Positions 222 through 55,437 of a stretch of 64,000 nt of DNA are shown here, in pieces. Below the pieces are notes generated by a model. The model saw only the letters and a list, made by a program, of their open reading frames with translations, searched no databases and was not told the origin of the DNA. The stretch covers positions 34,288,001-34,352,000 of the forward strand of contig CM059432.1 in the NCBI GenBank assembly GCA_030390025.1, read 5' to 3'. Made by a program: the position numbers and the translations under genes. Positions within the stretch are counted from its first letter, which is position 1. The number at the start of each line of letters is the position of its first letter. This DNA is from Squalus acanthias (taxonomy: Eukaryota).

Positions 222-572
222 GAGTCAGAGCATGTGAGTTCAAATCCCATTGTGGCAGTTTGAGAATTTGATTTCAGATTTTAAAAGTCTGAAAATGAAA
301 TAAAAGTGACCATGAAGCTGTCGGATTGTCGTAAAAACCTTTCACTAATGTCCTTTAGGGAAGGACACCTGACTTCCTTACCCAGTCTGGCCGATATGTG
401 ACTCCAGTCCCACATCAAAGTGGTTGACTCTTAAATGCCCCCTGATGTTGGCCTAGCAAGCCACTCAGTTGTAAGAAGGAGGCCCACCGCCATCTTCTGA
501 GGGCAACTAGGGATGGGCAATAAATGCCAGCCTTTCCAGTGAGGCCCTCATCCCAAGAATGAATTAAAAAAA
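222..572 (+). mobile_element. Short SINE-like derivative of family A (B-box, central body, family A LINE 3' tail)
   Basis: GAGTTCAAATCC B-box; body 'ttcactaatgtcctttagggaagga...ggcctagcaagccactcagttgta' matches the family A 5' UTR and joins directly to the tail 'agggcaactagggatgggcaataaatgcc...gaattaaaaaaa'. Confidence 0.8.
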
Positions 573-632
573 TTGGGTTCCATATTAACCCCCTCACGAC
601 AGGTGGGAGATGGGTGGTGGGAGGGTTCAGAG

Positions 633-860
633 AATCATCGAATGGTTACAGCACAGAAGAAGGCTATTCGGCCCGTCGAGCCCATGCCAACTCTCAGCTA
701 GTCCCACTCCCCTGCCCTTTCTCCGTAGCCCTGCAAATTTTTTTCCTTCAGATACTTATCCAACTCCCTTTTGAAAGATAAGATTGAGTCTGCCTCCATC
801 ACCCTTTCAGGAAGTGCATTCCAGATCTTAAACACTCGCTGTGTAAAAAAGTTTTTTCTT
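633..860 (-). mobile_element. CR1 LINE 3' fragment
   Basis: C-terminal ORF2 peptide FFTQRVFKIWNALP...FKRELDKYL plus CR1 3' UTR. Confidence 0.85.
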
Positions 861-1057
861 ACGAGTGAAACATGCAAACGCTTCAACAGTAGTTTGCACT
901 TTCATCTCCCCCATCACCATCCGTCGCTCTCCTGGGCAATCGGCACATCACCCCTGTCTCTCTGCGGGAGAGCAACTTGGAGCAGATCAGTGATGTCTTG
1001 TTAGCCCATGGCTAAACTATCTGTCAAAGGGATGATGGTGGAAGGCAAAAAGGGGTG

Positions 1058-4000
1058 TTTTTTTTATTCGTTCATGGGATGTGGGCGTCGCTGGCAAGGC
1101 CAGCATTTTATTGCCAATCCCTAGTTGCTCTTGAGAAGGTGGTGGTGAGCGGCCTTCTTGAACCGCTGCAGTCCGTGTGGTGAAGGTACTCCCACAGTGC
1201 TGTTAGGGAGGCAGTTCCAGGATTTTGACCCAGCGACGATGAAGGAACGGCGATATATTTCCAAGTCAGAATGGTGTGTGACTTGGAGGGGAACTTGCAG
1301 GTGGTGGTGTTCCCATGCGCCTGCTGCCCTTGTCCTTCTAGGTGGTAGAGGTCACGGGTTTGGGAGGTACTGCCGAAGAAGCCTTGGTGAGTTGCTGCAG
1401 CGCATCTTATAGATGGTACACACTGCAGCCACGGTAAGCCGGTAGTGGAGGTTTAAGGTGGGGGATGGGATGCCAATCAAATGAGCTGCTTTGTCCAGGA
1501 TGGTATCAAGCTTCTTGAGTGTTGTTGGAGCTGCACTCATCCAGGTAAGTGGAGAGTATTCCATCACACTCCTGACTTGTGCCTTGTAGATGGTGGAAAG
1601 GCTTTGGGGAGTCAGGATGTGAGACACTCGCCACAGAATACCCATCCACTGACCTGCTCTTGTTGCCACAGTATTTATGTGGCTGGTCCAGTTAAGTTTC
1701 TGGTCAACAGTGACCCCCAGGATATTGATGGTGGGGGATTCGGTGATGGTAATGCCGTTGAATGTCAAGGGGTGGTGGTTAGATGCTCGCTTGTTGGAGA
1801 TAGTCATTGCCTGGGACTTGTGTGGCGTGAATGTTACCAGCCACTTATCAGCCCAAGTCTGAATGTTGTCAAGGTCTTGCTGCATGTGGGCATGGACTGC
1901 TTCATTATTTGAGGAGTTGCGAATGGAACTGAACATGGTGCAGTCATCAGCGAACATCCCCACTTCTGACTTTATGATGGAGGGAAGGTCATTGATGAAG
2001 CAGCTGAAGATGGTTGGGCCTAGGACACTGCCCTGAGGAACAGCTGCAGCGATGTCCTGGGGCTGTGATGATTGACCTCCAGCCACCACAACCATCTTCC
2101 TTTGTGCTAGGTATGACTCCAGCCAGTGGAGAGTTTTCCCTCTGATTCACATTGACTTCAGTTTTATTAGGGCTCCTTGATGTCATATTCGGTCAAATGC
2201 TGCCTTGATGTCAAGGGCAGTCACTCTCATCTCACCTCTGGAATTCAGCTCCTTTGTCCATGTTTGGACCAAGGCTGTAATGAGGTCTGGAGCCGAGTGG
2301 TCCTGGTGGAACCCAAACTGGGCATCAGTGAGCAGGTTATTGGTGAGTAAGTGCTGCTTGATAGCACTGTCGATGACACCTTCCATCACTTTGCTGATGA
2401 TTGAGAGCAGACTGATGGGATGCTGGTTGGTCGGATCGGATTTGTCCTGCTTTTTGTGGAAAGGACATACCTGGGCAGTTTTCCACATTGTCGGATAGAT
2501 GCCAGTGTTATTGTTGTACTGGAACAGCTTGGCTAGAGGCACAGCTAGTTCTGGAGCACAAATCTTCAGCATGACAGCCGGGATGTTGTCGGGGCCCATA
2601 GTCTTTGCTGTATCCAGTGCGCTCAGCCGTTTCTTGATATCACGTGGAGTGAATCGAATTGGCTGAAGACTGGCTTCTGTAGTGGTGGGTACCTGAGGAG
2701 GAGGCCGATATGGATCATCCACTCGGCACTTCTGGCTGAAGATGGTTGCAAACGCTTCAGCTTTGTCTTTTGCACTCACATGCTGGGCTCCACCATTATT
2801 GAGGATGGGGATATTCATGGAGCCTCCTCCTCCCGTTAGTAGTTTAATGGTCCACCACCATTCACGACTGGATGTAGCAGGACTGCAGAGCTTTGATCTG
2901 ATCCGTTGATTGTGGTATCACTTATAAACTCTTTCTATAGCATGCTGCTTCCACTTTTTAGCATGCATGTAGTTCTGTGTTGCAACTTCCCCAGGTTGGC
3001 ACCGCATTTTTAGGTACGCCTGGTGCTGCTCCTGGCATGCTCATCTACACTCCTCATTGAACCAGGGTTGGTCACCTGGCTTGATGGTAATGGTAGAGTG
3101 AGGGATATGCCGGGCCATGAGGTTACAGATTGTGGTGGAATACAATTCTGCTGCTGCTGATGGCCCACAGCGCCTCATGGATGCCCAGTTTTGAGTTGCT
3201 AGATCTGTTCTGAATCTATCCCATTTAGCACGGTGGTAGTGCCACACAACACGATGGAGGGTGTCCTCAGTGTGAAGACGAGATTTCGTCTTCACAATGA
3301 TTGTGCAGTGGTCACTGCTACCAATGCTGTCATGGATAGATAGATTGGTGAGGACAAGGTCAAGTAGGTTGTTCCCTCGTGTTGGTTCTCTCACCACCTG
3401 TCGCACCAGACTGGCAGCTATGTGCTCCAGGACTCGGCCAGTAGTGGTGCTACCGAGCCACTCTTGGTAATGGACATTGAAGTTGCCCACCCAGAGTACA
3501 TTCTGTGCCCTTGCTACTCTCAGTGCTTCTTCCAAATGGTATTCAACATGGAGGAGTACTGATTCATCAGCTGAGGGAGGGCAGTAGGTGGTAATCAGCA
3601 GGAGGTTTACTTGCCCATGCTTGATATGAGACTTCATGGGATCCGGAGTCAATGTTGAGCACTCCCAGGGCCACTCCTTCCCAACTGTCTACCACTGTGC
3701 CGCCACCCCTGACAGGACAGACCCAGGGATGGTGATGGAGGAGTTTGGGACATTGGCTGAAAGGTATGATTCTGTGAGTATGACTATGTCAGGCTGTTGC
3801 TTGACTAGTCTGTGGGATGGTTCTCCCAATTTTGGCAGAAGTCCCCAGATGTTGGTGAGGATGACTTTGCAGGGTTGACTGGGCTAGGTGTGCCATTGTC
3901 ATGTCTTTAGCCGGTGCCGATGCCGAGGTCAATGCCGGGTGGTCCGTCCGGTTTATTCTTATTGCTTTTCGTAGCTTTTTTTACAACTGAGCTTGCTAGG

Positions 4001-4281
4001 CCATTTCAGAGGGCAGTTAAGAGTCAACCACATTGCTGTGGGTCTGGAGCCACATATAGGCCAAACCAGGTAAAGATGACAGATTTCCTTCCCTAAAGGA
4101 CATTAGTGAACCAGATGGGTTTTTACAACAATCCGATAGTTACCATATTCCAGATTTATTTTATTAACTGAATTTAAATTCCCCAGCTGCCGTGGTGGGA
4201 TTTGAACTCATGTCTACTGGATCATTAGTCCAGGCCTTTGGATTACTAGTCCAGTAACATAACCACTATGCTACTGTTTCC
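1058..4281 (-). mobile_element. Family A LINE, full-length decayed copy 1 (tRNA-like head + APE endonuclease + RT, no ORF1; CR1-group)
   Basis: EN motifs TNIWGL, GNFNVH, LLDLVLTN, SDH; RT motifs ALDIKAAFD, PQGSVLGP, FADD; A8 tail at 1058-1065; splits a Penelope-derived fragment (1021-1057 / 4282-4480). Confidence 0.93.
4198..4273 (-). promoter_or_regulatory. Pol III type-2 internal promoter of family A copy 1
   Basis: A-box TAGCATAGTGG (4273-4263) fits TRGCNNARYGG; B-box GAGTTCAAATCC (4209-4198). Confidence 0.85.
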
Positions 4282-4765
4282 ATCATGGTAATGGGTGAAT
4301 AAAGAAAAAAAAGATGGGTCCAGAGGAGCTGTAAATGGCAATAGTAGAATCATTACCAGCGCCTGCTCTCCGAAAAAATTGGAGCAGTGGTTATGAACTG
4401 AAGTTGTTGAACTCACTGTTGAGGCCGGAAGGTTGTAAAGTGTCTAATTGAGCTTGCATTGAGCTTCATTGGAACAGTGTTTTCAGCCTCCTACACTGTT
4501 CCACTGTTTCTTTATTGTCCCATTATCACCCCCTTTTGCCTTGCACCATCATCCCTTTTGTCATTTAATCACGCCTGCCCTCCACCCTATCACAGACCTT
4601 CCTCTTGTTCTTTCCTCCCCCCACCACACCTTTTTTCCTTGGCTCTTTATTTGCTTATAAACTGTTAAATCTCTAACTTCTTCCAGTTCTGATGAAAGGT
4701 CATCTGTTTCTCTCTTCACAGATGCTGCCTGACCTGCTGAGTGTTTCCAGCATTTTCAGTTTTCA
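4282..4765. mobile_element. Penelope-like element remnant: inverted 3' ORF end (4282-4480, minus) and pseudo-LTR tail (4481-4765, plus)
   Basis: Minus strand encodes ...TLQPSGLNSEFNNF (end of a PLE ORF); plus part ends with 'ctgatgaaaggtca...agatgctgcctgacctgctgagt', also seen at 8560-8660. Confidence 0.65.
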
Positions 4766-5028
4766 TTCACCATTGCATCCGTGAAGTGGGCGCTTAAATA
4801 ATCAAGATGAAATTGCATCATGGGGGTCCGCATCATGCCCACTCACGCGCAGTGGAGACGCGAAACCCAGAAGTAAACTGAAAATGAGACATCCCTGTTG
4901 AAATCAGACATTCCCATGCACCCACGATCTTGCGTGTTTGTCGCCCGCTATTCCCCCGCCCCCCACTCCTGCAAATCCCTCCCCCCCACCCCCGCTCAGG
5001 TCCCGTCTCTACGTTACTATTGAGTCCA

Positions 5029-5322
5029 TTGGAGACACCAGCGGTGGCGGAGCATGAAACAGCGGCGACCTGATTGGAGACACCAGCGGCGGCGGAGCAT
5101 GAAACAGCGGCGACCTGATTGGAGACACCAGCGGCGGCGGAACATGAAACAGCGGCGACCTGATTGGAGACACCAGCGGCGGCGGAGCATGAAACAGCGC
5201 CGACCTGATTGGAGACACCAGCGGCGGTGGAGCATGAAACAGCGCCGACCTGATTGGAGACACCAGCGGCGGTGGAGCATGAAACAGCGGCGACCTGATT
5301 GGAGACACCAGCGGCGGTGGAA
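5029..5322 (+). repeat. 45-bp tandem repeat (about 6.5 copies) at the 5' end of a CR1 element
   Basis: Unit ttggagacaccagcggcggcggagcatgaaacagcggcgacctga, starts at 5029, 5074 etc. Confidence 0.95.
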
Positions 5323-5554
5323 CCCAAAAAATTAAGAGTGACATCACAGGACAGCAGGTAGGTGATTGGTTGGTGTGTATTAAGGTTTTTTTTTCTCTCT
5401 AACCTAGGACAGTGATTTAAACTAGGACCAGGAAACTATGACGTACTGTATTAAATTTATAGCTTAACTAGTTAACCTATTTAATATAACTATAAATAAT
5501 CATTGAATAAAGACTTTAACTAACTAAATAAATAAAATAAGGCGAGACTAAGAT

Positions 5555-6443
5555 ATGGCAGGGCAGATTGTGTGTCTGGACTGCAGTATGTGGGAGTTTG
5601 TGGACGGTGAGACTGTCCCGAGCAAACATGTCTGCAGGAGATGTCTCCATCTCGAATCGCTCCGGCTCAGAGTCATTGAGCTGGAGTGCGAGTTGGAGAC
5701 ACTCCAACACTTAAGGGAGGGGGAGGAATTTCTGGACAGTTTTATCCAGAATACAATCACACCCCAGAGGAAAGCACAGGTTCAGGAATGGGAGGGTGTG
5801 ACTGTTCGGGAGCCGGGTAGCGGGGATTTACGAGAGGTTGAGAAGGAGATCCCGCAGACACTGGTCCTGTCCAACAGGTACGATGTACTCGCTACCTGTG
5901 AGGACAAAGAGAAAGACTGCAGGGAGGACAGCCACAATGCAGACCAAGGCACCATGGCTCGGAAGGCTGTCCAAGGGGGAAGAGCAGAATAGAAATGTGG
6001 TAGTAATAGGAGACTCTATAATTAGGGGGATCGATAGCGTCCTCTGCAGCCAGGAACAAGAATCCCGCAGGGTGTGTTGCCTACCCGGTGCCAGGGTAAG
6101 GAATATCTCACGGCAGCTGGAGAGGAACTTGGAAAGGGAGGGGATAAATCCAGTTGTCGTGGTCCATGTTGGAACAAACAACATAAGTAGGACCTCAAAG
6201 GTAATAACGTCTGGATTATTGCCCGAGCCACGTGCAAATTGGCATAGAAGCAGACAGATCAGGAGAATTAACACATGGCTAAAGGGCTGGTGTGGGAAAG
6301 AGGGGTTCCTTTTCATGGGACACTCGCAACAGTTCTGGGACAGGAAAGAGCTGTCCCGATGGGACGGGCTCCACCTGAACCAGGATGTGACCTGTGTCCT
6401 AGTGAAAAGGGTAAATAGGGAGGTGGCAAAGGCTTTAAACTAG
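5555..6443 (+). pseudogene. CR1 ORF1 remnant: Cys zinc finger/coiled coil + SGNH esterase
   Basis: CLDC..CRRC followed by a leucine-rich helix; GDSI, GARV, GTNN, DGLHLN blocks; frameshift near 5980. Confidence 0.88.
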
Positions 6444-6626
6444 TAAGAAGCGGGGAGGGATCTACAAGAAATGTAAGCAGTCTAAATATAAACAAAACAG
6501 GAAAAGTGAGCATAGGAAAGAATAAAGTAAGGGAGGACATTGACATCAAGGGAGCAAATACAGTTATAGAACAGGAGTCTAAAAAGATGGTTGAACATAA
6601 AGTGAGAGGAAATCCTATTAAAGATG

Positions 6627-9369
6627 AGTTAAACTGTCTGTACAGCAATGCACACAGTGTCCGTAATAAAACAGGGGAGATGGAGGCAATCATGCGTTGG
6701 GAGGAACCAGACATAGTAAGGATTACTAAGATATGGCTACAGAAAAATTAGGACTGGGAATTAAACACTGCAGAGTATAACATATTTAGAAAAGATAGAG
6801 AGGGAAAAAGGGGGAGGTGGAGTAGCTGTACTTATTAGGGATAACATAATGGCAGTAGAAAAAAGGGACGTAGATATCAGCAAGACAAAAATAGAATCCA
6901 TATGGATGGAGATAAAAGATAATAAAGGATCAATCACACTAATAGGGGTAGTCTACAGACCACCTAATAGTGGAAGGGAGGTGGAGGAAGAAATATGCAG
7001 ACAAATTAGAGAAATTAGTAAAAAACATAGAATAATAATCATGGGGGATTTCAACTACACCGATATTAATTGGACAGAAGAGTTGGTAAAGGGGATAAGG
7101 GAATGGAGTTCCTACAATGTCTACAGGACTCCTTTCTAACCCAATATGTAAAAAGCCCAACAAGGGAGGATTCACTATTGGATCTAGTAATGGGGAATGA
7201 GCCAGAGCAGATAAGAGAAGTAAATTTAGGGGAGCATATAGGCAATAGTGACTGTAATATAATACGCTTTAAGATGATAATAGAGAAGGACATAAGTATG
7301 ACAAAAAACAGGTTAATAGATTGGAGAAAAGCTGATTTTGAGGGGCTGAGAATAGAACTTGGGAAGATAAAATGAGCAACAATATTGGCAAACAACGATG
7401 TAGAATGACAATGGGAAAAATTTAAAACGGTGTTCAACAGAGTGCAGAAAAAATATATTCCGCTAAAAGGAAAGAACAAACTAAACACTAATGAGACTCC
7501 ATGGATGAACAAAGACATAATTGAGGGTAAGGAAAGGGGCATACATTAAGTACATAGACAGCAGAGGAGTGCATGAAAAAGAAAAAATACGAAGGGATTA
7601 GGAGAGAAGTCAAAAAAACAATTAGGAAGGCAAAGAGGAACTATGAAATTAAATTATCAAGGAATAAAACAAAATAGTAAAATATTTTACAGGCACATCA
7701 ATAAAAAAAGGACGGTTGTGATGGGAATAGGGCTATTAAGGGATAGACAGGACAATACCACAGGTAACGATCGGGAGATGGCAGAAATATTAAATCATAA
7801 TTTTGCTTCTGTATTTACCAGGGAGATGACATTGATGATGAGATGAGATGAGTAATGTGATAATTGCATTTAAAGTTTTAAAAAGTGGATATATTAAATA
7901 AACTAATCAAACTCAGAGGATAAAAACCCCTAGTCCAGATAGATTGTATCCACGCATTTTAAAAGAATCTAGGGAAGGAATAGCAGAGGCATTACTACAC
8001 ATATTTAATAATTCATTAGAAAAAGGTGTAGTGCCAGAGGACTGGTGGATAGCTAATGTAATACCGATATTTAAGAAGGGGGATAGAACATGTCCAGGGA
8101 ATTATAGACCAGTCAGCTTAACATCGGTGGTAGGAAAATAATGGAATCCCTACTAAAGGAGAAAATAGAAGAACATCTAGAAACAAAAAGTATAATAATG
8201 AATAGTCAGCATGGATTTCAAAAGGGAAAATCTTGCTTGACCAACCTTATTGAATTTTTTGAAGCGGTAACAGAGAGAGTAGACAATGGTAATGCAGTAG
8301 ATGTAATTTATCTAGATTTTCAAAAGACCTTCGATAAGGTACCCCAAAATAGACTAATGAATAAGGTCAGAGAATGCAGAGTCAGGGGACAAGTAGCAGA
8401 ATGGATTGCTAGCTGGCTTCAAGACAGAAAGCAGAGAGTGGGAGTAAAGGTAAGCTATTCATAGTGGCAGAAGGTGGGTAGTGGTGTTCCACAAGGATCA
8501 GTGCTGGGACCACTGCTGTTCACAATTTACATGAACAATTTAGACAACTGGAAACTCTTTCCAGTTCTGACGAAAGGTCATCGACCTGAAACGTTAACTC
8601 TGTTTCTCTCTTCACAGATGCTGCCTGACCTGCTGAGTATCTCCAGCATTTTCTGTTTTTAAATGTGAAGTATTACAGTTTGGTAGGAAGAATAGGGAGG
8701 TCACTTATCACTTGGAGGGTGCGAGTCTAGGTGGGGCAGAGGAACAAAGGGATCTCGGAGTATAAATACACAAAACACTAAAAGTTGTGTCACAGGTTAG
8801 CAAGGCCATAAAAAAAGCAAACGAAGCACTAGGGTTTATTTCTAGAGGGATAGAATTGAAAAGTAGGGAAGTTATGCTAAACCTGTATTGAACCTTGGTT
8901 AGACCACACTTAAGAGTACTGCATACAGTTCTGGTCGCGGTATTATAAAAAGGATATAGAGGCACTGGAGAGGTTGCAGAGAAGATTTACAAGGACGATA
9001 CCAGGAATGCGAGGGTATACATATCAGGAAAAGATGAACAGGCTGGGTCTCTTTTCTATTGAAAAAAGAATGCTGAGGGGTGACCTAATAGAGGTCTTTA
9101 AAATTATGAGAGGTTTTGATAGAGTGGATACAGAGAGAATGTTTCCACTTGTGGGGAAGAGCATAACTAGAGGCCATCAATATAAGATAGTCACCAAGAA
9201 ATCCAATAGGGAATTCAGAAGAAACTTCTTTACCCAAAGAGTGGTGAGAATTTGGAACTCATTACCACAGGGAGAGGTTGAAGCAAATAGTATAGATGCA
9301 TTTAAGGGGAGGTTAGACAAGCATATGAGGGAGAAGGGATTAGAGGGTTACACTGATAGATTTAGATGA
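6627..9369 (+). pseudogene. CR1 ORF2 remnant (APE + RT), multiple stops and frameshifts
   Basis: CLYSNAHS, GDFNY, LLDLVMGN, NYRPVSLTS, QHGF, DFQKTFDKV, PQGSVLGP; FADD region lost at the 8546-8660 insertion. Confidence 0.9.
8546..8660 (+). mobile_element. Penelope-derived short insertion with a minimal hammerhead-like motif
   Basis: AGTT-CTGACGA-A-AGGTC-atc-GACCT-GAAACGTT-AACT at 8563-8599; 9-bp foldback AACTGGAAA/TTTCCAGTT at the 5' end. Confidence 0.7.
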
Positions 9370-9845: not shown

Positions 9846-9920
9846 TATTCTGTATTCGGCCATGTTATAGCTGGCGTGGGCAAGCTATTGGGTGTCAGAA
9901 GTCTTTCATTTCCCAATATA

Positions 9921-12900
9921 GGGAACGGTAGCATAGTGGTTATGTTATTGGACGAGTAATACCAGAAGCCTGAATAATCCGGTAGATGTGAGTTCAAATC
10001 CCACCACGGCAGCTATGGTATTTTAAATTAGTTAATTAAATAAATCTTGACTTGGATTGTTGTAAAAACCCACCTTTTGGTTTCACTAACGTCCTTTAGG
10101 GTAGGAAATCTGCTGTCTTTACCTGGTCTGGCCTATATGTGACAGCAATGTGGTTGATTCTTAACTGCCCTCTAAAATGGCCTAGCAAGCCACTGAGTTG
10201 TACACAACCACTACGAAAAACAATAATAAGAATAAAACCGGACATACCTCGGCACCGGCTTCGGATATGACAACGGCAGACCCAGGCCAGTCGACCCTGC
10301 AAAGTCCTCCACACCAACATCTGGGGACTTGTGCCAAAATTGGGAGAGCTGACTCACAGACTAGTCAAGCAACAGCCTGACATAGTCATACTCACAGAAT
10401 CTAACCTTCAGCCAATGTCCCAAACTCCTCCATCACCATCCCTGGGTATGTCCTGTCCCACCGGCAGGACCGACCAACCAGAGGTGGTGGCACAATGGTA
10501 TACAGTCGGAAAGGAGTGGCCCTGAGAGTCCTTAACATTGACTCTGGACCCCATGAAGTCTCATGGGTTCAGGTCAAGCATGGGCAAGGAAACCTCCTAC
10601 TGATTACCACCTACCGCCCTCCCTCAGCTGATGAATCAGTACTCCTCCATGTTGAACACCACTTGGAAAAAGCACCGAGGGAAGCAAGGGCACAGAATTT
10701 ACTCTGGGTGGGGGACTTCAATGTCCATCACCAAGAGTGGCTCGGTAGCACCACTACTGACCGAGCTGGCCGAGTCCTGAAGGATATAGCTGCCAGACTG
10801 GGCCTGTGGCAGGTGGTGAGAGAACCAGCACGAGGGGAAAAACCTACTTGACCTCGTCCTCACCAATCTACCTGTCACAGATGCATCTGTCCCTGACAGC
10901 ATTGGTAGCAGTGACCACCGCACAATCCTTGTGGAGATGAAATCCCGCCTTCAGACTGAGGACACCCTCCATCGTGTTGTGTGGCACTACCACCGTGCTA
11001 AATGGGATAGATTCAGAACAGATCTAGGCACTGTGGGCCATCAGCAGCAGCAGAATTATATTCCACCACAATCTGTGACCTCATGGCCCGGCATATTCCT
11101 CACTCTACCATTACCATCAAGCCAGGGGACCAACCCTGGTTCAATGAGGAGTGCAGAAGAGCATACCAGGAGCAGCATCAGGCATATCTACAAATGAGGT
11201 GCCAACCTGGGGAAGCTGCAACACAGGACTACATGCATGCTAAACAGCGGAAGCAGCATGCTATAGACAGAGCTAAGCAAGCCCACAATCAACGGATCAG
11301 ATCAAAGCTCTGCAGTCCTGCCACATCCAGTCGTGAATGGTGGTGGACAATTAAACAACTAATGGGAGAAGGAGGCTCCATGAATATCCCCATCCTGAAT
11401 GATGACAGAGCCCAGCATGTGAGTGCAAAAGACAAGGCTGAAGTGTTTGCAACCATCTTCAGCCAGAAGTGCCGAGTGGATGATCCATATCGACCTCCTC
11501 CTGAGGTCCTCACCATCACAGAAGCCAGTGTTCAGCCAATTCGATTCACTCCACGTGATATCAAGAAACGGCTGAGCGCACTGGATACAGCAAAGGCTAC
11601 GGGCCCCGACAACATCCCGGCTATCGTGCTGAAGGCTTATGCTCCAGAACTAGCTGTGCCTCTAGCCAAGCTGTTCCAGTACAGCTACAACACTGGCATC
11701 TACCTGACATAACTGCCCAGGTATGTCCTGTCCAAAAAAAGCTGGACAAATCCGATCTAGCCAATTACCGCCCCATCAGTCTACTCTCAATCATCAGTAA
11801 AGTGATGGAAGGTGTCATTGACAGTGCTATCAAGCGACACTTACTCACCAATAACCTGCTCACCGATGCCCTGTTTGGGTTCCGCCAGGACCACTCGGCT
11901 CCAGACCTCATTACAGCCGTGGTCCAAACATGGACAAAAGAGTTGAATTCCAGAGGTGAGGTGAGAGTGACTGCCCTTGACATCAAGGCAGCATTTGACC
12001 GAGTGTGGCATCAAGGAGCCCTAGTAAAACTGAAGTCAATGGGAATCGGGGGGAAAGTCTCCACTGGCTGCAGTCATACCGAGCACAAAGGAAGATGGTT
12101 GCAGTTGTTGGAGGTCAATCATCACAGCCCCAGGACATTGCTGCAGGAGTTCATCAGGGCAGTGTCCTAGGCCCAACCATCTTCAGCTGCTTCATCAATG
12201 ACCTTCCCTCCATCATAAGGTCAGAAGTGGGGATGTTCGCTGATGATTGCACAGTGTTCAGTTCCATTCGCAACTCCTCAGATAATGAAGCAGTCCATGC
12301 CCGAATGCAGCAAGACCTGGATGACATTCAGGCTTGGGCTGATAACTGGCAGGTAACATTCATGCCACAAAAGTGCCAGGCAATGACTATCTCCAACAAG
12401 TAAGAGTCTAACCACCACCCCTTGACATTCAACGGCATTACCATCGCTGAGTCCCCCACCATCAACATCCTTGGGGTCACCATTGACCAAAAACTTAACT
12501 GGACCAGCCACATAAATACTGTGTCGACAAGAGCAGGTCAGAGGCTGGGTATTCTGCGGCGAGTGTCTCACCTCCTGATTCCACAAAGCCTTTCCACCAT
12601 CTACAAGGTACAAGTAAGGAGTGTGATGGAATACTCTCCACTTGCCTGGATGAGTGCAGCTCCAACAACACTCAAGAAGCTCAACACCATCCAGGACAAA
12701 GCAGCCCGCTTGATTGGCACCCCATTCACCACCTTAAACATTCACTCCCTGCACCACCAGGGTACCGTGGCTGCAGTGTGTACCATCTACAAGATGCACT
12801 GCAGCAACTTGCCAAGGCTTCTTCGGCAGCACCTCCCAAGCCCGCGACCTCAACCACCTAGAAGGACAAGGGCAGCAGGCGCACGGGAAGACCATCACCT

Positions 12901-13137
12901 GCAAGTTCCCCTCCAAGTTACACACCATCCTGACATGGAAATATATCACCGTTCCTTCATCGCCGCTGGGTCAAAATCCTGGAACTCCCTCCCTAACAGC
13001 ACTGTGGGAGTACCTTCACTACAAGGACTGCAGCGGTTTAAGAAGGCAGCTCACCACCACCTTCTCAAGGGCAATTAGGGATGGGCAATAAATGCTGGCC
13101 TTACCAGCAACGCCCACATCCCAGGAACAAGTAAAAA
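9921..13137 (+). mobile_element. Family A LINE, full-length decayed copy 2
   Basis: Same head, body, EN (GDFNVH, SDH), RT (QGSVLGP, FADD) and tail as copy 1; same length, about 3.2 kb. Confidence 0.93.
9929..10001 (+). promoter_or_regulatory. Pol III A-box/B-box of family A copy 2
   Basis: TAGCATAGTGG 9929-9939; GAGTTCAAATCC 9990-10001. Confidence 0.85.
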
Positions 13138-13907
13138 TATCAACATCCCAAAAACAAAGGAAAATTACAACACACCCTCAGTGATGCGGGTTGTGCATTG
13201 GTTTCCTACTCTCAGTGTCAGCCACTCCTCAAAGAATGCCTGGCCTTTCCAGCATACAAAGGTTTTTGATTTATTGTCTTCCATTGCACATTTTATTAAC
13301 AGCGCATTTTTAACGATTATCCTGTCAACAGGGATTCCTGACAGAGGAATCTCGACCGTCTCTCTGTCGAGCATCACTTTATTTAGCAGCGTTGAATGCA
13401 GGGAGCCCGTTCGGACCTGATCCATCCATCAACAATCCAGTTTCTCGGGATTAAGCTTTAATGAGATGCCAATACCAAAGAAAGACTATACAATTAAACT
13501 AGGTATTTGACATTTTTCTGAAGTGATACACGATTGCAAGCTTCCATCACAAGGATATTAAATGCAAATTAGATACGTAATGTGCATTGCAACACCTTGT
13601 GAGATGTACTAAAATCTGCATTGATACAGTTGTAGGTTAGATATTTGGGGGGGATGGTGAGAGGCGTCATTTGAAGGTTCTAGGCTTTGTGTATCCTTTT
13701 AAGAGATGAGAGCTTTGCGTACACCAGCCTCATGATCATAAGTGGATAATTGGACTGTTTGAAATGCTACGCAGATCAGCCGATTGTCACTGAGGCACTC
13801 AGCCCTTGGGGGATAACAAAACTTAACTAAACAGATCAAAGCCTATTTGATCAGTCATAGCTTCGGCTGCAGCTCCTACTTGAGAGCCTTAACCCCACAC
13901 CTACCAA

Positions 13908-26864: not shown

Positions 26865-27097
26865 AAGAAAGGACTTGCATTATATAGCACCTTTCACAAC
26901 TTCAGGACATCCCAAAGCGCTTCACAGCCAATGATGTACTGTTGTAATGTAGGAAGCGTGGCAGCCAGTTTGCGCAGAGCAAGGTCCCACAAATAGCAAT
27001 GAGATAAATGCCCAGATAATCTGTTTTTAGCGATGGTAGTCGAGGGACACTGGGAGAATTCCCCTGCGTTTTCTCATAGTCCCATGGGATCTTGTAC
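26865..27097 (-). mobile_element. DeuSINE partial copy
   Basis: Reverse complement of the tail/core of the 18869 copy. Confidence 0.75.
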
Positions 27098-27512
27098 ATA
27101 GTGTTGTGGTTATGTTACTGGACTAGTAATTCAGAGGATGTGAGTTCAAATACCACCATGACAGATTGATCATTTCAATTCAGTTTTTAAAAATCTAGAA
27201 CTAAAAAGCTGACATCAGTAAAAGTGACCATGAAACTGCCGGTCACTTTAGTCATAAAAACCCAACTGGTTTACGAATGTACTTTAAGAAAGGAAACCTG
27301 CTGTCCTTACCCAGTCTGGCCTATATGTGACTCCAATCCACACTAACATAGTTGACTCTTAACTGCCCTGTGAAATGGCCTAGCAAGCCACACAGTTGTA
27401 TCAAAACTGCTACTATACTGGAACTTCATACCAAGCAGCACTGTGGGAGCACCTTCACCATATGGATTGCAGCGGTTAGAAGGTCCACTACCATGTTCTC
27501 AAGGCAACTAGG
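27098..27512 (+). mobile_element. SINE-like derivative of family A with a longer 3' segment
   Basis: gtggttatgttactggactagtaa head, B-box, body, then cagcactgtgggagcaccttcacc...aaggcaactaggga from the LINE 3' end. Confidence 0.8.
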
Positions 27513-27844
27513 GAGAATCCTACTTATAAGCCTACTTAAACTAACAATATTATGGACATACAAACTAGGAGCCTAAAAGGTTCACTGGGCCCAAAATGTC
27601 CATCACTTTTAAATAGATCAGACACACCCAGGTCAGGTAACAACAGAGGGCAGACTGGCCCTATCAGGAGATTTCCTGAGTGCCCCCGTAAATGGTTTCA
27701 TAGCACTGTATTATTGTCCCCCTCCCTTTTTCCAAGAGAATCCCCCATTATACAATTACTTTTCTGTTGTTTGATTTTTTTTTAACCCAAGGTAGGGGAT
27801 GTCGATGCTGGCTTGTGGAATTTTTCTACCTTCTGCACCCAGTG

Positions 27845-33535: not shown

Positions 33536-35220
33536 TTTTTTTTTAATTCGTTCCTGGGATGTGGGTATCGCTGGCAAGGCCAGCATTTATTGCCCATTCC
33601 TAGTTGCCCTTGAGAAGGTGGTGGTGAAATGCCTTCTTAAACTGTTGCAGTCCGTGTGGTGAAGGTACTCCCACAGTACTAATAGGGAGGAAGTTCCAGG
33701 ATTTTGACCCAGTGACGATGAAGGAACGGCAATATACTTCCAAGTTAGGATGGTGTGTAACTTGGAAGAGAATTTGGAGGTGGTGGTGCTCCCATGCGCC
33801 TGCTGCCCTTGTCCTTCTAGGTGGTAGAAGTCATGGGTGTGGGAGGTGCTCCCGGAGAAGCCTTGGCAAGTTGCTGCAGTGCATCTTGAAGATGGTACAC
33901 ACTGCAGCCACGGTACGCTGATGGTGGAGGGAGTGAATGTTTAAGGTGGTGGATGGGGTGCCAATCAAGCGGGCTGCTTTGTCCTGGATGGTGTTGAGCT
34001 TCTTGAGTGTTGTTGGAGCTGCACTCATCCAGGCAAATGGAGAGTATTCCATCACACTCCTGACCCACTGGAATTCAGCTCTTTCGTCCATGTTTGGACC
34101 AAGGCTGTAATGAGGTCTGGAGCCGAGTGGTCCTGGCGGAACCCAAATTGGGCATCAGTGAGCATGTTATTAGTGAGTAAGTGCTGCTTGATAGCACTGT
34201 CGATGACACCTTCCATCACTTTGCTGATGATTGAGTGTAGACTGATGGTGCGGTAATTTTCCGGATTGGATTTGTCCTGCTTTTTGTGGACAAGACATAC
34301 CTAGGCAGTTTTCCACATTGTTGGGTATGCCAGTGTTGTAGCTGTACTGGAACAGCTTGGCTAGAGGCACAGCTAGTTCTGGAGCACAAGTCTTCAGCAC
34401 GATATCCGGGATGTTGTCGGGGTCCACAGCCTTTGCTGTATCCAGTGCGCTCAGCCATTTCTTGATATCACGTGGAGTGAATCGAATTGGCTGAAAACTG
34501 GCTTCTGTGAAGGTGGGGACCTCAGAAGGAGGCCGATATGGAAAATCTACTCGGCACTTTTGGCTGAAGATGGTTGCAAACGCTTCAGCCTTGTCTTTTG
34601 CACTCACGTGCTGGGCTCCACCATCATTGAGGATGGGGATATTCATGGAGCCTCCTCCTCCCGTTAGTTGTTTAATTGTCCACCACCATTCATGACTGGT
34701 TGTGGCAGGACTGCAGAGCTTTGATCTGATCTATTGATTGTGGGATCGCTTATCCCTGTCTATAGCATGCTGCTTCCGCTTTTTAGCATGCATGTAGTCC
34801 TGTGTTGCAGCTTCCCCAGGTTGGCACCGCATTTTTAGATATGCCTGGTGCTGCTCCTGGCATGCTCTTCTACACTCCTTATTGAACCAGGGTTGGTCCT
34901 CTGGCTTGGTGGTAATGGTAGAGTGAGAGATATGCCAGGCCATGAGGTTACAGATTGTGGTGAATACAATTCTGCTGCTGCTGTTGGCCCACAGCGCCTC
35001 ATGGATGCCCAATTTTGAGCTGCTAGATCTGTTCTGAATCTATCCCAATTTGCACGGTGGTAGTGCCACACAACACAATGGAGGGTGTCCTCAGTGTGAA
35101 GACGGGACTTCGTCTTCACAATGACTGTGCGGTGGTCACTGCTACCAATGCTGTCATGGACAGATGCATTTGCAACAGGTAAATTGGTGTGAAAGAGGTC
35201 AAGTAGGTTTTTCCCTCGTG
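33536..35220 (-). mobile_element. Family A LINE, 5'-truncated with an internal deletion of the RT core
   Basis: SDH to 3' tail; junction near 34065 skips from ELNS to VRSVMEY. Confidence 0.9.
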
Positions 35221-35235
35221 TTTTTCCCTCGTGTT

Positions 35236-36022: not shown

Positions 36023-38158
36023 GAGTGACTGCCCTTGACACCAAGGCAGCATTTGACCGAGTGTGGCATCAAGGAGCCCTAATAATATTGAAGTCAATGG
36101 GAATCAGGGGGAAAAGTCTCCACTGGCTGGAGTCATACCTAGCACAAAGGAAGATGGTTGTGGTTGTTAGAGGTCAATCATCTCAGCCCCAGGACATTGC
36201 TGCAGGTGTCCCTCAGGGCAGTGTCCTGGGCCCAACCATCTTCTGCTGCTTCATCAATGACCTACCCTCCAACTTTGAGGTGCCTGCTGTACATGGTCCA
36301 TGTCTCTTAGGCATACAGCAGGGCGGGTATCACTGCTGCTCTGTAGACCATGAGATTAGTGCTGGGTTTGAGGTACTGGTCTTCAAACACTCTCTTCCTC
36401 AGGCGACCGAAGGTTGCACTGGCACACTGAAGGCAGTGTTGGACTTCGTCGTCGACGTTTGCCCTTGTTGACAGTAGGCTCCCGAGGTATGGAAAGTGGT
36501 CCACGTTGTCCAAGGCCTTGTCGTGGATTTGATAATCGGGGGGCAGTACTGTGTGGCAGGGGCAGGTTGGTAGAGGACCTTTGTCTTACGGATGTTTAGT
36601 GTAAGGCCCATGCTCTCAGAGACATGGACCATGTACAGCAGGCACCTCAAAGCACTGGAGAGGTACCACCAACGCTGCCTCCGCAAGATCCTGCAAATCC
36701 ATTGGCAGGATAGACGCACCAACGTCAGTGTTCTTGCTCAGGCCAACATCCCCAGCATCGAAGCTTTGACCACGCTCGATCAGCTCCGATGGATGGGTCA
36801 CATTGTCCGCATGCCTGATACGAGACTCCCAAAACAAGCACTCTACTCGGAGCTCCGGCATGGCAAGAGAGCCCCAGGTGGGCAGAGGAAATGCTTCAAG
36901 GACACCCTCAAAGCCTCCTTGAAAAAGTGTAACATCCCCACCGACACCTGGGAATCCCTGGCCCAAGACCGCACAAAGTGGAGGAGAAGCATCCGGGAAG
37001 GCGCCGAACACCTCGAGTCTCTTCGCCGGGAGCAAGCAGAAGCCAAGCGCAGGCAGCGCAAGGAGCGCACGTCAACCCAAGCACCCCACCCACCTGCTCC
37101 TTCAACCACCGTCTGCCCCACCTGTGACAGAGACTGTAGGTCCCGCATTGGACTCATCAGTCACCTGCAAACTCATTTTTAATGTGGAAGCAAGTCATCC
37201 TCGGTTCCGAGGGACTGTCTAAGAAGAAGAAGAAGACCCTCCATCATAAGGTCAGAAGTGGGGATGTTCGGTGATGATTGCACAGTGTTCAGTTCCATTC
37301 GCAAATCCTCAGATAATGAAGCAGTGCAGCAAGACCTGGACGACATTCAGGCTTGGGCTGATAAGTGGCAAGTACAATCTCGCCACACCAGTGCCAGGCA
37401 TTGACTATCTCCAACAAGCGAGAGTTTAACCACCACCCCTTGACATTCAATGGCATTACCATCGCCGAATCCCCCAACATCAACATCCTGGGGTCACCAT
37501 TGACCAGAAACTTAACTGGACCAGCCACATAAATACTGTGGCAACAAGAGCAGGTCAGAGGCTAGGTATTCTGCGGTGAGTGTCTCACCTCCTGACTCCC
37601 CAAAGCCTTTCTACCATCTACAAGGCACAAGTAAGGAGTGTGATGGAATACTCTCCAATTGCCTCAATGAGTGCAGCTCCAACAACACTCAAGAAGCTCG
37701 ATACCATACAGGGCAAAGCAGCCTGCTTGATTGGCACCCCATCCACCACCTTAAACATTCACTCCCTCCACCACCGGCGTACCGTGGCTGCAGTGTGTAC
37801 CATCTACAAGATGCACTGCAGCAACTCGCCAATGCTTCTTCGGCAGCACCTCCCAAACCCACGACCTCTTCCACCTAGAAGGACAAGGGCAGCAGGCGCA
37901 TGGGAACACAACCACCTGCAAATTCCCTTTCAAGTCACACACCATCCTGACTTGGAAATATATCACCGTTCCTTCATCGTCGCTGGGTCAAAATCCTGGA
38001 ACTCCCTCCCTAACAGCACTGTGGGAGTACCTTCACCACACGACTGCAGCGGTTCAAGGTGGCGGCTCACCACCACCTTCTCAAGGGCAATTAGGGATTG
38101 GCAATAAATGCTGGCCTTGTCAGCAACGCCCACACCCCCAGAACGAATAATAAAAAAA
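36023..38158 (+). mobile_element. Family A LINE, 5'-truncated, interrupted by an RTE element
   Basis: TALDTKAAFDRVWH, PQGSVLGP; resumes at 37236 and runs to the A-rich tail. Confidence 0.9.
36272..37235 (+). mobile_element. RTE-clade LINE fragment with an inverted 5' segment
   Basis: FPYLGS, QLRWMGHIVRMPDTRLPKQALYSEL, C-terminal CxxC..H; (AAG)n tail; 8-bp TSD accctcca (36264-36271, 37236-37243). Confidence 0.9.
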
Positions 38159-40503: not shown

Positions 40504-40772
40504 AGCGACTGAGTTACAGGCTGGAGTCTAACCCAGGAATTTGGCTAGTTTATGGGTAGGATGTTGGTTGCATTCTGGTGGTGCAACAAATCAGGATCTG
40601 TTGTCTGCTGGTTATCCTGGCTTATCTTCTTCCATGAGGTGCAGTCAACGCATGAATGAATGTAATTGGGGTGTTTCTGAGCGACCATCCAACATTATAG
40701 TTAGTCAAGTATTCACATCCCAGGTACAGTAGTGTAGTGGTTATGTTACTGGACTAGTATACCAGAGACTGT

Positions 40773-42310
40773 GGCTGCGATTTTCCCGACCTCGGCGGGT
40801 CCGTGGCGGGTGACGTCGCTGGCAGTCGCGGCCCCGCTGCTGGCTCCACCCCGGCCTCCGACATGACCTTCCCCTGATTGGGCTTGTTAAGCCCGCCCAG
40901 CGAGTTTCCCATCCAATTGAAGGAAGCGGGTCTGATGACATCATTTATGACACGTCAGCAGCCGGTTTCCTTAAAGGGACCATGCACAAATTTACTTTGA
41001 CATTTGTGCTGTCAGTGTTCTACAGCATTGAGGTGCTGCAAACACTGACAATCACTTCACAGAGGTGCACGGCTGCACCCAGCCTCTCCCATGACTCCCT
41101 CCAAATGCTTATGGAAGGAGTCACAGCACACAGGGAGGTTCTCTTCCCTTCCAATGGGCAGAAGAGACTTCCCCAGGACACCAACGCAGCCTGGTTGCAC
41201 ATTGCATAGGAGGACACAAGCAGGGATGTCGTCAGGGGTCCCTGGCTGCAGTGGTGCAAACCTTTCAATGATCTCAGTAGATCACGAAACGTTACTGCAA
41301 AGCCATATTCAACCTCATCCTGCTGTGCCACTCATCACATCCGCATCACTCTGCCTTCCCTACCCTACTCCTGCACATCCTTACTCACACCAACTTACCT
41401 TGCACCTCCACCCATCCCTCTCTATTTACATTATTACTTCCCCATCTCACAATCCACCCCTCACACTCATCCTAGTCCAATCATACCAAGTAACAACACA
41501 CAACTTGTGTGTTTTAGCCAATGTTCATGTGAAGTTTCTGTTAATGTGCTGTCAAACATTGAAACATTTATTTTCAACACTTTGCATTCTTGGACAGATT
41601 TGTGTGTACCTTTGGAAGTGGCTCAGTGAGTTGCAATGAATGGTGAGACATAACGGTACCCCTTGCAATGCTGATGAGTGTGAAAGGAATGGCTTGGGCA
41701 TGCTTTATGGTGTTGGTGTGGGTGGTGCCAACCTGGCGCATCATATGACAGACAGGGTGTGCAGAGTCAAGTGAAGGAAATGTGGCCATGGTGAGGCCAT
41801 CCCTAGTGTTCCGGGCAGCAATGTGGTTGGGTGCTGACGCCCTCTGTCCTGTGCAGCATCAGGTGATTGCGGAGAAGGCTGGTGTGGTTGTTGGTGCTGC
41901 TGGTGTGCCTGGTGCTGCTGGTGTTGGGGCTGATCGTGGTCAGATTCTGAGGTCCAAGACGAGAGAGTATAAAGTGCACCCATGCTGATGGAATAGATGG
42001 CAGGTGAAGTAGAGATGACAGAAGCGATCTGTCAATGGTGGGAGAGGTAATGAGGTCAGACTGCATGGAGACTTGTGTAAATACTTGCAGCTTCCTGAAT
42101 CTGTAGTGGAAATGTAGTTTAGAGATGCTAGTGCTTAAGGGAAGATATCTGAATCAGTTGGGAGCTTTGACTTGACATTTGAAGCTGTCAATACTTCAGC
42201 TGATTCAATGGCCACTGACCTCCCGCCTCAGCTTCACTGACGAGGTCTAGGCACAGCGGGAAACCCGTGGGAGACCTGTGGAAGTTAAAAAGCTGGGGAA
42301 AAAAGCATCC
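40773..42310. mobile_element. Harbinger-derived element carrying a Myb/SANT-like ORF remnant, inserted after a family A tRNA head (40727-40772)
   Basis: TIR ggctgcgattttccc / gggaaaaaagcatcc; TSD TGT; about 41066-41280 reads APSLSHDSLQMLMEGVTAHREVLFP..AAWLHIA*..QWCKPFNDL. Confidence 0.75.
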
Positions 42311-42351
42311 TGTCAGTCTGGGTTGGATTTGTACCCATGTCCCAGAACTTA

Positions 42352-46832: not shown

Positions 46833-47954
46833 AGCATACAGAGCTGTCAAACGCTGTCATTTCTTCTTTCAAGAAGTCTTGACAGATAGCACGTCTGACG
46901 TTGACGTGATCTGTCAGTGACTTCTTCCCTAATTGGCTTGCTGAGCCCGCAGGGCGGGCTTAACAAGCTCAATCAGGGGAAAATCCCTCTGAATGGTCAG
47001 GCGAGGATGGAGGCGGGACATTGACACGACAAGCAGCAGTCCCGCCTCCAAGTCGCCTCCATTGACAAAATCTAGCCCATAATGTCCACCTGAGAGGGCA
47101 GATGGGCCTCAGTTTAATTTATCATCCGAAATACAACAATGCAGCATTCCCTCAGTACTCCACTATAGTGGCAGCAATAAATGCTGGCCTTGTCAGCGAT
47201 GCCCACATCCCATAAAAACAAATACATTTAAAAAATAATTTTGTGCTCAAGTCTCTGAAGTGGTACTTTAACCCACGACCTTCTGACTCAGAGGTGAGAG
47301 TGCTATCACTGAGCCATGGTTGCAAAGGATAAATTTGCAAGGCTACGGGGAAAGAGCGGAGGAGTGGGACTAATGGATAGCTCTTTCAAAGAGGTGGCAC
47401 AGACACGATGAGCTCTCCTTCTGCACTGTAAGTTTCTATGATTCTAGTAAATGGGACTCAAGTTGACTTTACTCAAAGAATGATGAGAGTGTGGAGTGGT
47501 TGAAGCAGATAGAATTTATTGCATTTAAGGGGAGGCTTGATGCATACATGAGGGAGAATGGAATAGAGGGAGAATGGAATAGAGGGATATGGGGATCAGA
47601 TAATGAGAGAGGGAGGAGCCTCTTGTTGAGTATAAACTGGGCCGATTGGCCTCCTTCTATGCTATAGGTTCTATGATTGTATGAATTAATCCAGGCAAAT
47701 CGTTCACTTTACCCTGAAAGGTTCAAAGACCCAGGAGACACAACTGAAAAAACAGGGATAATCATAGAAAGAGACTGTTTCCAGCGGTTGATGGGTGTAG
47801 AATGAGGGGATGTGATATCATAGAATCATAAAATGATACAGTGCAGCAGGAGGACATTTGGCCCATCATGCCCGTGCTGGCTCTTTGAAAGAGCTATCCA
47901 ATTAGTTCCATTCCCCTGCCCTTTCCCCATAGCCTGATTTACATTTTTTTTCAG

Positions 47955-50590: not shown

Positions 50591-51439
50591 ATGTGTGTTA
50601 TTCGCAATTCATGGGGTATCTCTTCCTCGCCACAAGTTGCTGGCCAATTTATACATTAATAACGGCATGCATCGTTCACGTTGCGTAGGGACTTCCAGGA
50701 TTTTGACCCAGTGATGATGAAGTAATGGCAATATTTGTCCGAATCAGGATGGTGTGTTTCTTGGAAAGGAACTTGGAGGTGATGGTGTTCCCATGCACCT
50801 GCTGCTCTTGTCCTGGTCTAATAGACTTTTCCTGTTTCTAAAAAAAAATTCTTATGTGTAGGGCAGTGAAACAGTTAAACGTTTGAGGGAAAAAAACTGA
50901 TAATGTTCTCAGTTAATCTCAGAGAAGGGAAACTACAGCTGCAGCCTGGGCCTTTGAAAGCCTCCTTTGCTCGTCCCATTCATGTTTATCAATCAGGTTT
51001 AATTTTAGGCTTTGATTTCCAAGGTTAAACGTGGTATAATGTTACATGCGGCGTGTCGGGTGCAATGCACCAATTTGGTGCCTTTTGCCTGAGAGGCACG
51101 CAGAAAGAATGCAAGGGCAGTATATCGTGACAGAATTCCAGGGATGGTTCAGGTGGGTGGCAGCTCTTCCAACAGGGAGCAGGCTGCGGGAGTGGAGGGG
51201 TGGGGGAGGTGGGGGAGAGCACAAAGGTGCAAATAGCAGCTCTTATCAGGCACTCTGTGGTGACCCAGAGAACACGCAGGCCTTTATATAAACCGTACAC
51301 CTAGTGGTTTCTCACGTCTGCTCAGGTGTTCTCACATTACTTAATTGCTCATTTTCCTCAAGTGTATAAGATTTTAGAATAACTCCATTCAGGGACTTGG
51401 TGTTCAGCCGAGTTCCACCTCAACACTGCTCCCTGTTGC

Positions 51440-54390: not shown

Positions 54391-54489
54391 AACTTAAGCA
54401 AGTCACCAGCAGACCTATGTGGACAGGTTAGATGTCCTGCCTCACCATTAATCATCCAATGGGAGAAGAATCTAGCCCAACCTGTTCTA

Positions 54490-54832
54490 CTGCCCATAAT
54501 AGTAAAATTGTTTCTCCTAACCCCTCCCAGAGTTATTCTGGTGATGATCTTAAAGTTATGAACTCTAGTTACTGAGTCACCAACCAGTGCAAATAGTTTT
54601 TCCCAATTTACCTCCATCAAAACCCTTCCTAATTCTGAACACTTCTATCAGATCTCCTCTTAACTTTCTCTATCCTAGTGAAAAGAGCTCCAGTTTTTCT
54701 AGTCTCTCCTCATAACTAAATCCTCTCAACCCTGGTATCGTAGCAACTCTCTTCTTGCACCCTCTCCATGGCCTTGACATATTTCCTAAAGTAGGGCATC
54801 CAAACTGGACACAATGCTCTAACTGTGGCCTA
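54490..54832 (-). mobile_element. Old CR1 fragment
   Basis: EKLFALVG.SVTRVHNFKI peptide. Confidence 0.7.
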
Positions 54833-55092
54833 TGAAGGACAGCAGTTCAAGGAGTCACAGCATGTTTAAATGTAACAGCCTAAGGGTTAAAAAGTTTATA
54901 ATAAAAGATAGTGAACTTCCTGTAAACTCCCAACACTAACTTGTCTCATAATTTGATTTTACAAATCTCACTGTTGTATTAAAACTATTGCGAGACACAT
55001 TCGCAGGTTGATAGTACCCTGCCCCTCTCCCATGTAAGATAGCCAGTCAAACTTTTGTCTTAAAGGCGCAGTACCATACCAAAGTAGACATC

Positions 55093-55437
55093 TTTTATTT
55101 ATTCATTCTTGGGATGTGGTCGTCACTGGCATTACTGATCATCCTTAGAACTGAGTGGCTTACGAGGCTGATTCAGAGTCAACCACATCTGTGTGGGACT
55201 GATGTCACATATCGACCAGACCGGGTAAGGACAGCAGGTTTCTTTCGCTAAAGGACATTAGTGAAACAGATGGGTTTTTACGACAATCTGTCATCTTCAT
55301 GGTCACTTTTACTGATACCAGCTTTTTATTTCGAGATTTAAAAAAAACCTGAATTCTAATTCTCAAACTGCCATGGTGGAATTGTGAACTCAGTTTCTCT
55401 GGATTACTGGTCCAGTAACATAACTACTTGACTACTG
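55093..55437 (-). mobile_element. SINE-like derivative of family A with a very short tail
   Basis: Head gttatgttactggacc, body, then cacatcccaagaatgaataaataaaa. Confidence 0.78.

Follow-up and report, generated by a model that had tools for sequence, protein, structure and literature searches.

The origin of the bodies of short interspersed elements (SINEs) has been described as an open question (PMC5786205). Among the closest systems on record is Persaeus, a short internally deleted element (SIDE) of Lepidoptera, for which at least four origins from the CR1-group long interspersed element (LINE) Zenon have been reported, at microhomologies (PMC6740152). Here, we have analysed a window of 64,000 nucleotides of Squalus acanthias DNA (contig CM059432.1, positions 34,288,001 to 34,352,000) that contains two full-length copies (A1 and A2) of a LINE with a tRNA-like head, family A, and three short copies (S1, S2 and S3) built on the same head. 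The short repeats are non-autonomous relatives of this LINE, having the same 5' module joined to its 3' end at several points, and the LINE itself is an old and abundant element in which a tRNA-derived promoter head and a body of ~250 nt form the fixed 5' end.

Persaeus resembles the shark short forms in uniting the LINE 5' part with the end of the open reading frame (ORF) and the 3' untranslated region (UTR), and also in its several origins and its variable breakpoints at microhomologies (PMC6740152). In contrast, Persaeus is described as having neither tRNA homology nor a polymerase III promoter (PMC6740152), whereas the shark LINE has, as its 5' part, a head of tRNA type that includes A and B boxes, which makes the deletion product a SINE. 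The shark short forms thus fall outside the SIDE definition given for Persaeus, which excludes tRNA homology and a polymerase III promoter, but S1-S3 do consist only of LINE 5' and 3' parts, save one block that is absent from A1 and A2. In its working, the system resembles a SIDE whose polymerase III head is already built in.

The joining of LINE 5' and 3' parts is also known from Bov-A and Bov-tA, derived from Bov-B, and from RIME, Vingi and R2 SIDEs, with the SINE body coming from the LINE 5' UTR (PMC5786205, PMC3414825). In the Bov-A/RIME model, a small-RNA head is added after the deletion and the clades concerned are RTE, Ingi, Vingi and R2 (PMC5786205), whereas the full-length shark LINE already carries its head and its protein relatives are single-ORF elements with an APE-type endonuclease and a reverse transcriptase (RT). 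A small-RNA or tRNA-like piece within a coding non-LTR (long terminal repeat) element has been described for RTE-1_DAn and related elements (PMC5786205), and R2 has gained tRNA or U12 5' extensions via template jumps, but in R2 these junctions are rare and come with neither a SINE body nor a SINE family (PMC3414825). SacSINE1/L2 (Deu) and HE1/HER1 (V) are likewise pairs from cartilaginous fishes in which a tRNA-headed SINE has its tail from a LINE, but those pairs are described as sharing the tail only, HE1/HER1 in a table row (PMC5499810, PMC3747384). A first-pass annotation of the window had taken the sharing of the tail alone as the rule for SINE/LINE pairs, which is an overstatement, since derivatives with both 5' and 3' parts are known (PMC5786205, PMC6740152). 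No description of this particular LINE/SINE family was found in a literature search that left subscription journals, Ogiwara 1999, Repbase and Dfam outside.

The LINE and its short relatives

S1, S2 and S3 align to the 5' end and the 3' end of A1/A2, and to nothing in between (Table 1). The first-pass annotation had placed them at 222-572, 27098-27512 and 55093-55437, with a bare head (H4) at 40727-40772, and had proposed three different junctions with the LINE 3' end. All four features were found at those places, and the junctions were measured at ~-102, -166 and -67, counted, as all junction positions below, from the LINE 3' end. The start of S1 has to be corrected: the short copy is there, but clear likeness begins at ~226, in the B-box region, the A-box region being decayed or absent. 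The view of the short copies as head-plus-tail versions of the LINE also holds, in that only the two LINE ends are matched, but they do not follow A1/A2 letter for letter, differing in a 21-nt duplication and in the block mentioned above.

The post-tRNA body of S1-S3, ~250 nt, is 80-87% identical to that of A1/A2, with local scores of 172, 157 and 132 for S1, S2 and S3, respectively, against best scores of 24-30 in 500 shuffles each. Because these scores come from a region past the tRNA part and no shuffle exceeded 30, the likeness of the bodies to the LINE is neither chance nor generic tRNA similarity, the latter having been set beforehand as a refuting test. S2 reaches ~15 nt deeper into the LINE 5' UTR than do the other two copies, while its tail is short of the final 60 nt, lost together with the remainder of the Deu-type SINE that S2 interrupts. 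S3 keeps 56 nt of tail. The A and B boxes are decayed in all three copies.

With an A/B-box tRNA-like head and a partner-LINE 3' tail, the short forms have the make-up of tRNA-derived SINEs (SINE2). Their body had been likened by the first-pass annotation to AmnSINE2-like ancient SINEs, and an alignment to the Meta and Deu domains had been suggested; it matches neither of these two domains as printed (PMC7245038). We rejected DeuSINE, as no Deu domain was recognised by eye in the S1-S3 body against the printed sequence and the window's own Deu-type family does not match S1-S3; MetaSINE, as no Meta domain was recognised by eye against the printed consensus and four body words had 0 matches in one MetaSINE supplement; and the UCON3-domain SINEs, which have only one 10-letter word in common with the body (PMC7245038).

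The LINE is ~3.2 kb long and has one endonuclease-RT ORF, whose frame is broken in both A1 and A2. This frame matches PF14529 and PF00078 in Pfam (APE endonuclease and RT), as expected for an APE-type LINE, and the protein is 35% identical to P0005 across 961 aa. There is no space for an ORF1 in A1/A2; single-ORF L2 subclades are on record, so its absence is nothing new (PMC7140322). Parts of the LINE protein are 69-83% identical to gene models named after Heptranchias perlo, Heterodontus francisci or Cetorhinus maximus (7 of 40 matches), and, judged by these matches to several shark species, the family is old and widespread across sharks. In a quick RT tree, in which one out-of-frame outgroup row was ignored, the family A LINE falls inside a 32-row group (SH-aLRT 97) and outside a 21-row group (98) that holds the window's CR1-like element; the CR1 clade proper was therefore rejected for it. 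Protein scans of viral and prokaryote contigs gave no relatives, a 24-letter body pattern had 0 matches in metagenome contigs, and the ESM Atlas returned RT clusters only.

Upstream of the endonuclease domain, neither A1 nor A2 has an in-frame AUG. The nearest AUG (regions 3902-3853, minus strand, in A1 and 10267-10316, plus strand, in A2) lies 49 nt ahead of the conserved Asn; it is shifted by one base from the frame and overlaps a TGA that is in frame. In most of the relatives, by contrast (40 listed of 65 matched), the start is found 9-31 residues ahead of that Asn. The out-of-frame AUG of A1/A2 may reflect a frameshift, a non-AUG start or a common defect. A hairpin is predicted in the LINE 3' UTR, with z-scores of -2.6 to -0.1 across copies. 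RNAalifold on the body gave 26 pairs, 0 of them with a compensatory change, so no conserved structure was shown there, and no ribozyme or any Rfam family above threshold was found in window 1-13300.

Junction classes and the origin of the short forms

Four public runs, X5, X7 and X15 among them, were aligned to window 1-4400 at 80% likeness (X20-X23, with small shares, were left out). The results come from the 15 joints listed of 6,062, 12 inserted-letter rows of 468 and 22 loose-end rows of 12,754, and summed contig depth was not taken as copy number. Among the joints listed, those from body to tail reach the tail at ~-74, -90, -114, -159 and -285. A further joint, at -126, comes from three raw reads that belong to a third organism. 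The -74 joint is present in 15, 16 and 2 contigs of X5, X7 and X15, that is, in two organisms and three studies, and the -90 joint in 4 and 3 contigs, plus X15. The orientation of the -74 joint was deduced by analogy with the joint 501-1130. The joint 500-3991 was rejected as S1's junction: by the same analogy, it sets the body end almost directly against the tail at ~-74. The junction of S1 cannot show as a joint, S1 being part of the aligned stretch.

The depth per contig of the -74 joint (~22 in X5, ~10 in X7) is close to that of unique flank (26 and 12), so its contigs are probably separate loci. Since this joint recurs in the contigs of three runs, the body-to-tail junctions are not all single-locus accidents, an outcome that would have refuted the idea in the first-pass annotation, although none of the joints listed equals one of the window's three exactly. 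The -74 and -90 classes are probably multi-copy families with a common structure; the exact S1, S2 and S3 junctions have no match among the joints listed. Chimeras made at insertion, in which the RT first copies the LINE 3' end over a variable length and next jumps to a SINE RNA that is abundant, like L1 with U6, would have junctions that differ from event to event. They would account for a SINE-type head followed by a LINE tail of variable length, the body end and the tail do have a short imperfect homology at ~-102 to -120, and recurrent L1-to-U6 jumps are mentioned in the literature (PMC3414825). This explanation is nevertheless unlikely, because one junction recurs in 15-16 contigs per run and some others lie in contigs at ~15-22 times unique-flank depth (a rough guide), which points to amplified families, and because the 5' partner ends at the body end instead of being a whole RNA.

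The breakpoints are, in addition, clustered. Under a uniform model, p is 2.4e-4 for three independent random deletions falling in one 20-nt 5' window, and 5e-7 if their other ends are required, in addition, to lie within the last 175 nt. This clustering and the recurrent junctions led us to reject, as a general cause, the later genomic deletion of the middle of full-length LINE insertions. The local losses in S2 and S3, a 658-nt deletion in another LINE copy and the lack of any convincing target-site duplication at the five elements examined, out of five, would suit such a process, but the short copies also share characters that differ from both LINE heads, and we regard it as very improbable.

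We favour repeated internal deletion of an older tRNA-headed LINE subfamily, yielding ready-made SINEs, and would give this reading an even chance. It is preferred because the -285 form, with an earlier break in the body and a longer tail than S2, is not nested in S2 and could not have been cut from an S2-like SINE; because the 5' breakpoints of the short forms lie at successive points of a sequence which extends into the LINE 5' UTR; because the family does delete internally, as seen in the 658-nt loss and in deep skips within the LINE frame in the public runs (1240-1952, 2114-2372 and 2251-2723); and because the LINE 3' UTR span is retained by all junctions seen.

According to this proposal, the LINE lineage would have gained head and body once, probably by an RT jump onto a SINE or tRNA transcript. 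If the RT jumped from the tail region to the body end, or if a deletion guided by microhomology took place, the coding region would then be dropped in one step, and the product would be an RNA that has A and B boxes to serve RNA polymerase III as well as a 3' stem-loop recognised by the LINE protein, i.e., a ready-made SINE. Such a deletion would have occurred repeatedly, in a subfamily that predates A1/A2, and some of its products would have spread as families in trans. The clustering of breakpoints might arise if only products with the whole body and the 3' stem-loop spread well. We infer the mobility and polymerase III steps of this mechanism from sequence.

Several observations weigh against repeated deletion. 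Nine informative columns split S1+S2+S3 from A1+A2 (the next best split has 3), and an unrooted tree made from these five window copies separates S1-S3 from A1/A2 with a bootstrap of 100. One tail letter is common to S1 and S3 and absent from the LINE copies A1, A2, c33 and c56, and neither of the two head-bearing LINE copies in the window has a short-form head. All short forms but one are nested in the interval of S2 and could be secondary deletions of one longer SINE. The -114, -159 and -285 joints are known from one contig or one row each, and none of the joints listed matches the S1, S2 or S3 junction exactly (the S3 junction is 7 nt from the -74 class and that of S2 is 7 nt from the -159 joint). 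Lastly, S3 is without part of the tail hairpin, and convincing target-site duplications are missing.

Two indels also set the S1-S3 modules apart from the A1/A2 heads. A 21-nt duplication of the anticodon arm is present in A1 and A2 and absent from S2 and S3; the duplicated arm must be the derived state, because a tRNA has one arm. A block present in S1-S3 is wholly or largely lost in A1/A2, and 214 and 422 X7 contigs aligned to A1 carry it in two variants. Since the 5' modules group apart (nine columns, two indels, support of 100), S1-S3 are, as far as these modules tell, not deletions of the A1/A2 subfamily but come from an older head lineage, i.e., an older LINE subfamily or a SINE.

If that lineage was a SINE, one ancient element with head, body and a long LINE tail would have come first, the LINE RT would have jumped once onto its RNA to give the headed LINE, and the SINE descendants would have shortened or swapped their tails. 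The single S1-S3 group, the plain tRNA-like head of S2 and S3 against the derived duplication of A1/A2, the nesting of all other junctions in the S2 interval, the S1/S3 tail letter and the lack of a LINE with a short-form head agree with this order of events. So do the terminal branches (0.09-0.13 in S1-S3, 0.04 in A1 and 0.10 in A2), the probable acquisition of the head (none was found near 80 of 80 distant relatives, L001 included), and the exchange of tails and modules that is documented among SINEs (PMC7245038, PMC5499810). We still consider a single donor SINE possible but doubtful: the -285 junction demands a template longer than any short form seen, the short forms stop at staggered points of a sequence running on into the LINE 5' UTR, the LINE itself yields amplified internal deletions, and a greater age fits an older LINE subfamily equally well. 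The first-pass annotation had offered two routes, repeated internal deletion of the LINE or the capture of the LINE ORF by a SINE. The former is somewhat favoured here, but not from the A1/A2 lineage, since an older head lineage is required; nor do the two routes exclude each other, given that the LINE has to have acquired its head at one time or another.

The tRNA-like head and polymerase III

The A and B boxes, judged by consensus, are intact in both the A1 and A2 heads, 66 and 63 nt apart. The Rfam tRNA model gives the head 18 bits in A1 and 16.6 bits in S2, both under the gathering score of 29; ARAGORN predicted 0 tRNA genes, and the head folds no better than shuffles. The flanks of A1 and A2 are unrelated, and each copy begins with the head and body module. 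Among the rows listed, 533 contigs of X5 exit the aligned stretch at 4274 into unlike flanks (agreement 0.42); at 1058, such exits are seen in three runs, with 1987, 2630 and 114 contigs. Because of the exits at 4274, the head is a defined 5' end of many copies, although the X5 exit contigs do not separate LINE from SINE.

At 80 loci of distant relatives (~25-40% identity; many without a 5' end), none had a tRNA, a profile hit or, at up to 700 nt from the frame, an A+B pair. The sole DNA locus among them in the LINE's own 32-row group, L001, likewise showed no head. As no head was found near any of the 80, the head of the LINE is probably an acquisition.

A1 and A2 have 0 runs of four T on the sense strand after the body, over 2.9 kb, and a third LINE copy has two, both private changes. 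The scarcity has p values of 0.013 and 0.027 for A1 and A2 with mononucleotide shuffles, but of 0.19 and 0.14 with dinucleotide and 0.10 and 0.14 with synonymous shuffles. All 37 frames of at least 700 aa among the distant relatives hold four-T runs (6-49 each), but these relatives are richer in T, and CR1-like frames are likewise poor in T runs (p 0.013). We have therefore rejected the absence of T runs as proof of polymerase III transcription, given that its significance is gone under the dinucleotide and synonymous shuffles, that CR1-like frames behave similarly and that A1 and A2 are not independent. The relatives L055 and L015, which come from one assembly, have low T and no four-T run in their longest frames; they group with CR1-like rows, outside this family, and are without 5' ends. 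In run X15, which is RNA by guess only, summed depth is 5-20 times higher on head and body than on the next ORF bins, a figure from contigs that reveals neither start nor polymerase.

Transcription or read-through of the LINE by polymerase III is compatible with its sequence. The LINE could then be an autonomous coding retrotransposon transcribed by polymerase III from its tRNA head, translated cap-free and perhaps without an in-frame AUG, and a SINE factory in which one deletion gives a complete SINE, several independent times in sharks; we put this forward tentatively and think it rather unlikely in full.

Surrounding repeats and implications

The window is repeat-rich eukaryotic DNA, and its features are collected in Table 1. 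The rest of the SINE to which H4 would belong was not found. After H4 comes a stretch of ~6.3 kb (40774-47080), with inverted ends at 40869-40902 and 46948-46981 (94%) and CR1-like pieces inside, possibly a DNA transposon. A separate Deu-type SINE family, its domain recognised by eye against the printed Deu alignment, lies at 18861-19330, 29250-29718, 42351-42801, 26853-27093 and 47084-47316; both S2 and a 43-nt LINE tail piece are inside copies of it. A decayed tail of the LINE family (30105-30177, minus strand) follows a 67-nt unit, which is also repeated in tandem at 27845-28191 (region 27748-28191) and occurs inverted at 30181-30373. Two other arrays occupy 57095-58217 and 59445-60004, one of ~20 tandem units of 55 nt and one degenerate, of short period, that contains long open frames. 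At 15067-16473 (plus strand) there is a stop-free RT frame of 468 aa with few T runs, from an element that we take to be Penelope-like. The labels CR1-like, Penelope-like and RTE-like for the other repeats of the window are our own assumption.

Table 1. Copies and parts of the family A LINE and of its short relatives in the window.
Feature	Position	Strand	Description
S1	226..572	+	B-box part of head, body to ~472, LINE tail 473-572; junction ~102 nt from LINE 3' end
S2	27094..27514	+	complete tRNA-like head without the 21-nt duplication, body to ~27414, LINE tail 27415-27514; junction ~-166; 3' end lost; abuts a broken Deu-type SINE
S3	55093..55443	-	head and body 55443-55149; tail 55148-55093 from LINE stop codon; junction ~-67; 10-nt gap in tail hairpin
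H4, bare tRNA-like head	40724..40773	+	A box to anticodon arm, 50 nt, E 4e-8; cut off by unrelated sequence
LINE A1	1057..4281	-	full length, decayed; tRNA-like head, body, one APE-endonuclease/RT frame, ~65-nt 3' UTR, A-rich end
A1 head	4185..4281	-	A box 4273-4263; 21-nt anticodon-arm duplication; B box 4207-4199; Rfam tRNA 18 bits
A1 body	3970..4184	-	common to S1-S3; most 5' breakpoints of short forms at body end (~3970-4011)
A1 stop codon and 3' UTR	1057..1123	-	predicted stem-loop; span retained in every junction seen
LINE A2	9921..13140	+	second full-length head-bearing copy; unrelated site; 86.6% identical to A1
LINE copy, 5'-truncated	33537..35222	-	clean 658-nt internal deletion, short imperfect microhomology at its edges
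LINE copy, 5'-truncated	36023..38158	+	another element inserted at ~36272-37236
LINE tail, 5'-truncated	56113..56446	-	
Other LINE tail pieces	61038-61213, 50685-50814, 59243-59328, 47174-47216		

The new elements here are a catalogue of the junction classes and the finding that short-form heads and LINE heads separate; the family itself may already be contained in repeat libraries. As a rule, LINEs are stated to depend on polymerase II, and SINEs on polymerase III (PMC10886601). If the LINE itself were a polymerase III transcript, this rule would be broken, and how an uncapped RNA of 3.2 kb gets translated would become a question. As a coding LINE here has the head and body of a SINE for its 5' end, and numerous junction classes have survived in genomes, the order of events, i.e., the SINE from the LINE or the LINE head from a SINE, is directly testable by a tree of copies. 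Should the SINEs prove to have come from a headed LINE by deletion, this would provide a one-step route to new SINE families.

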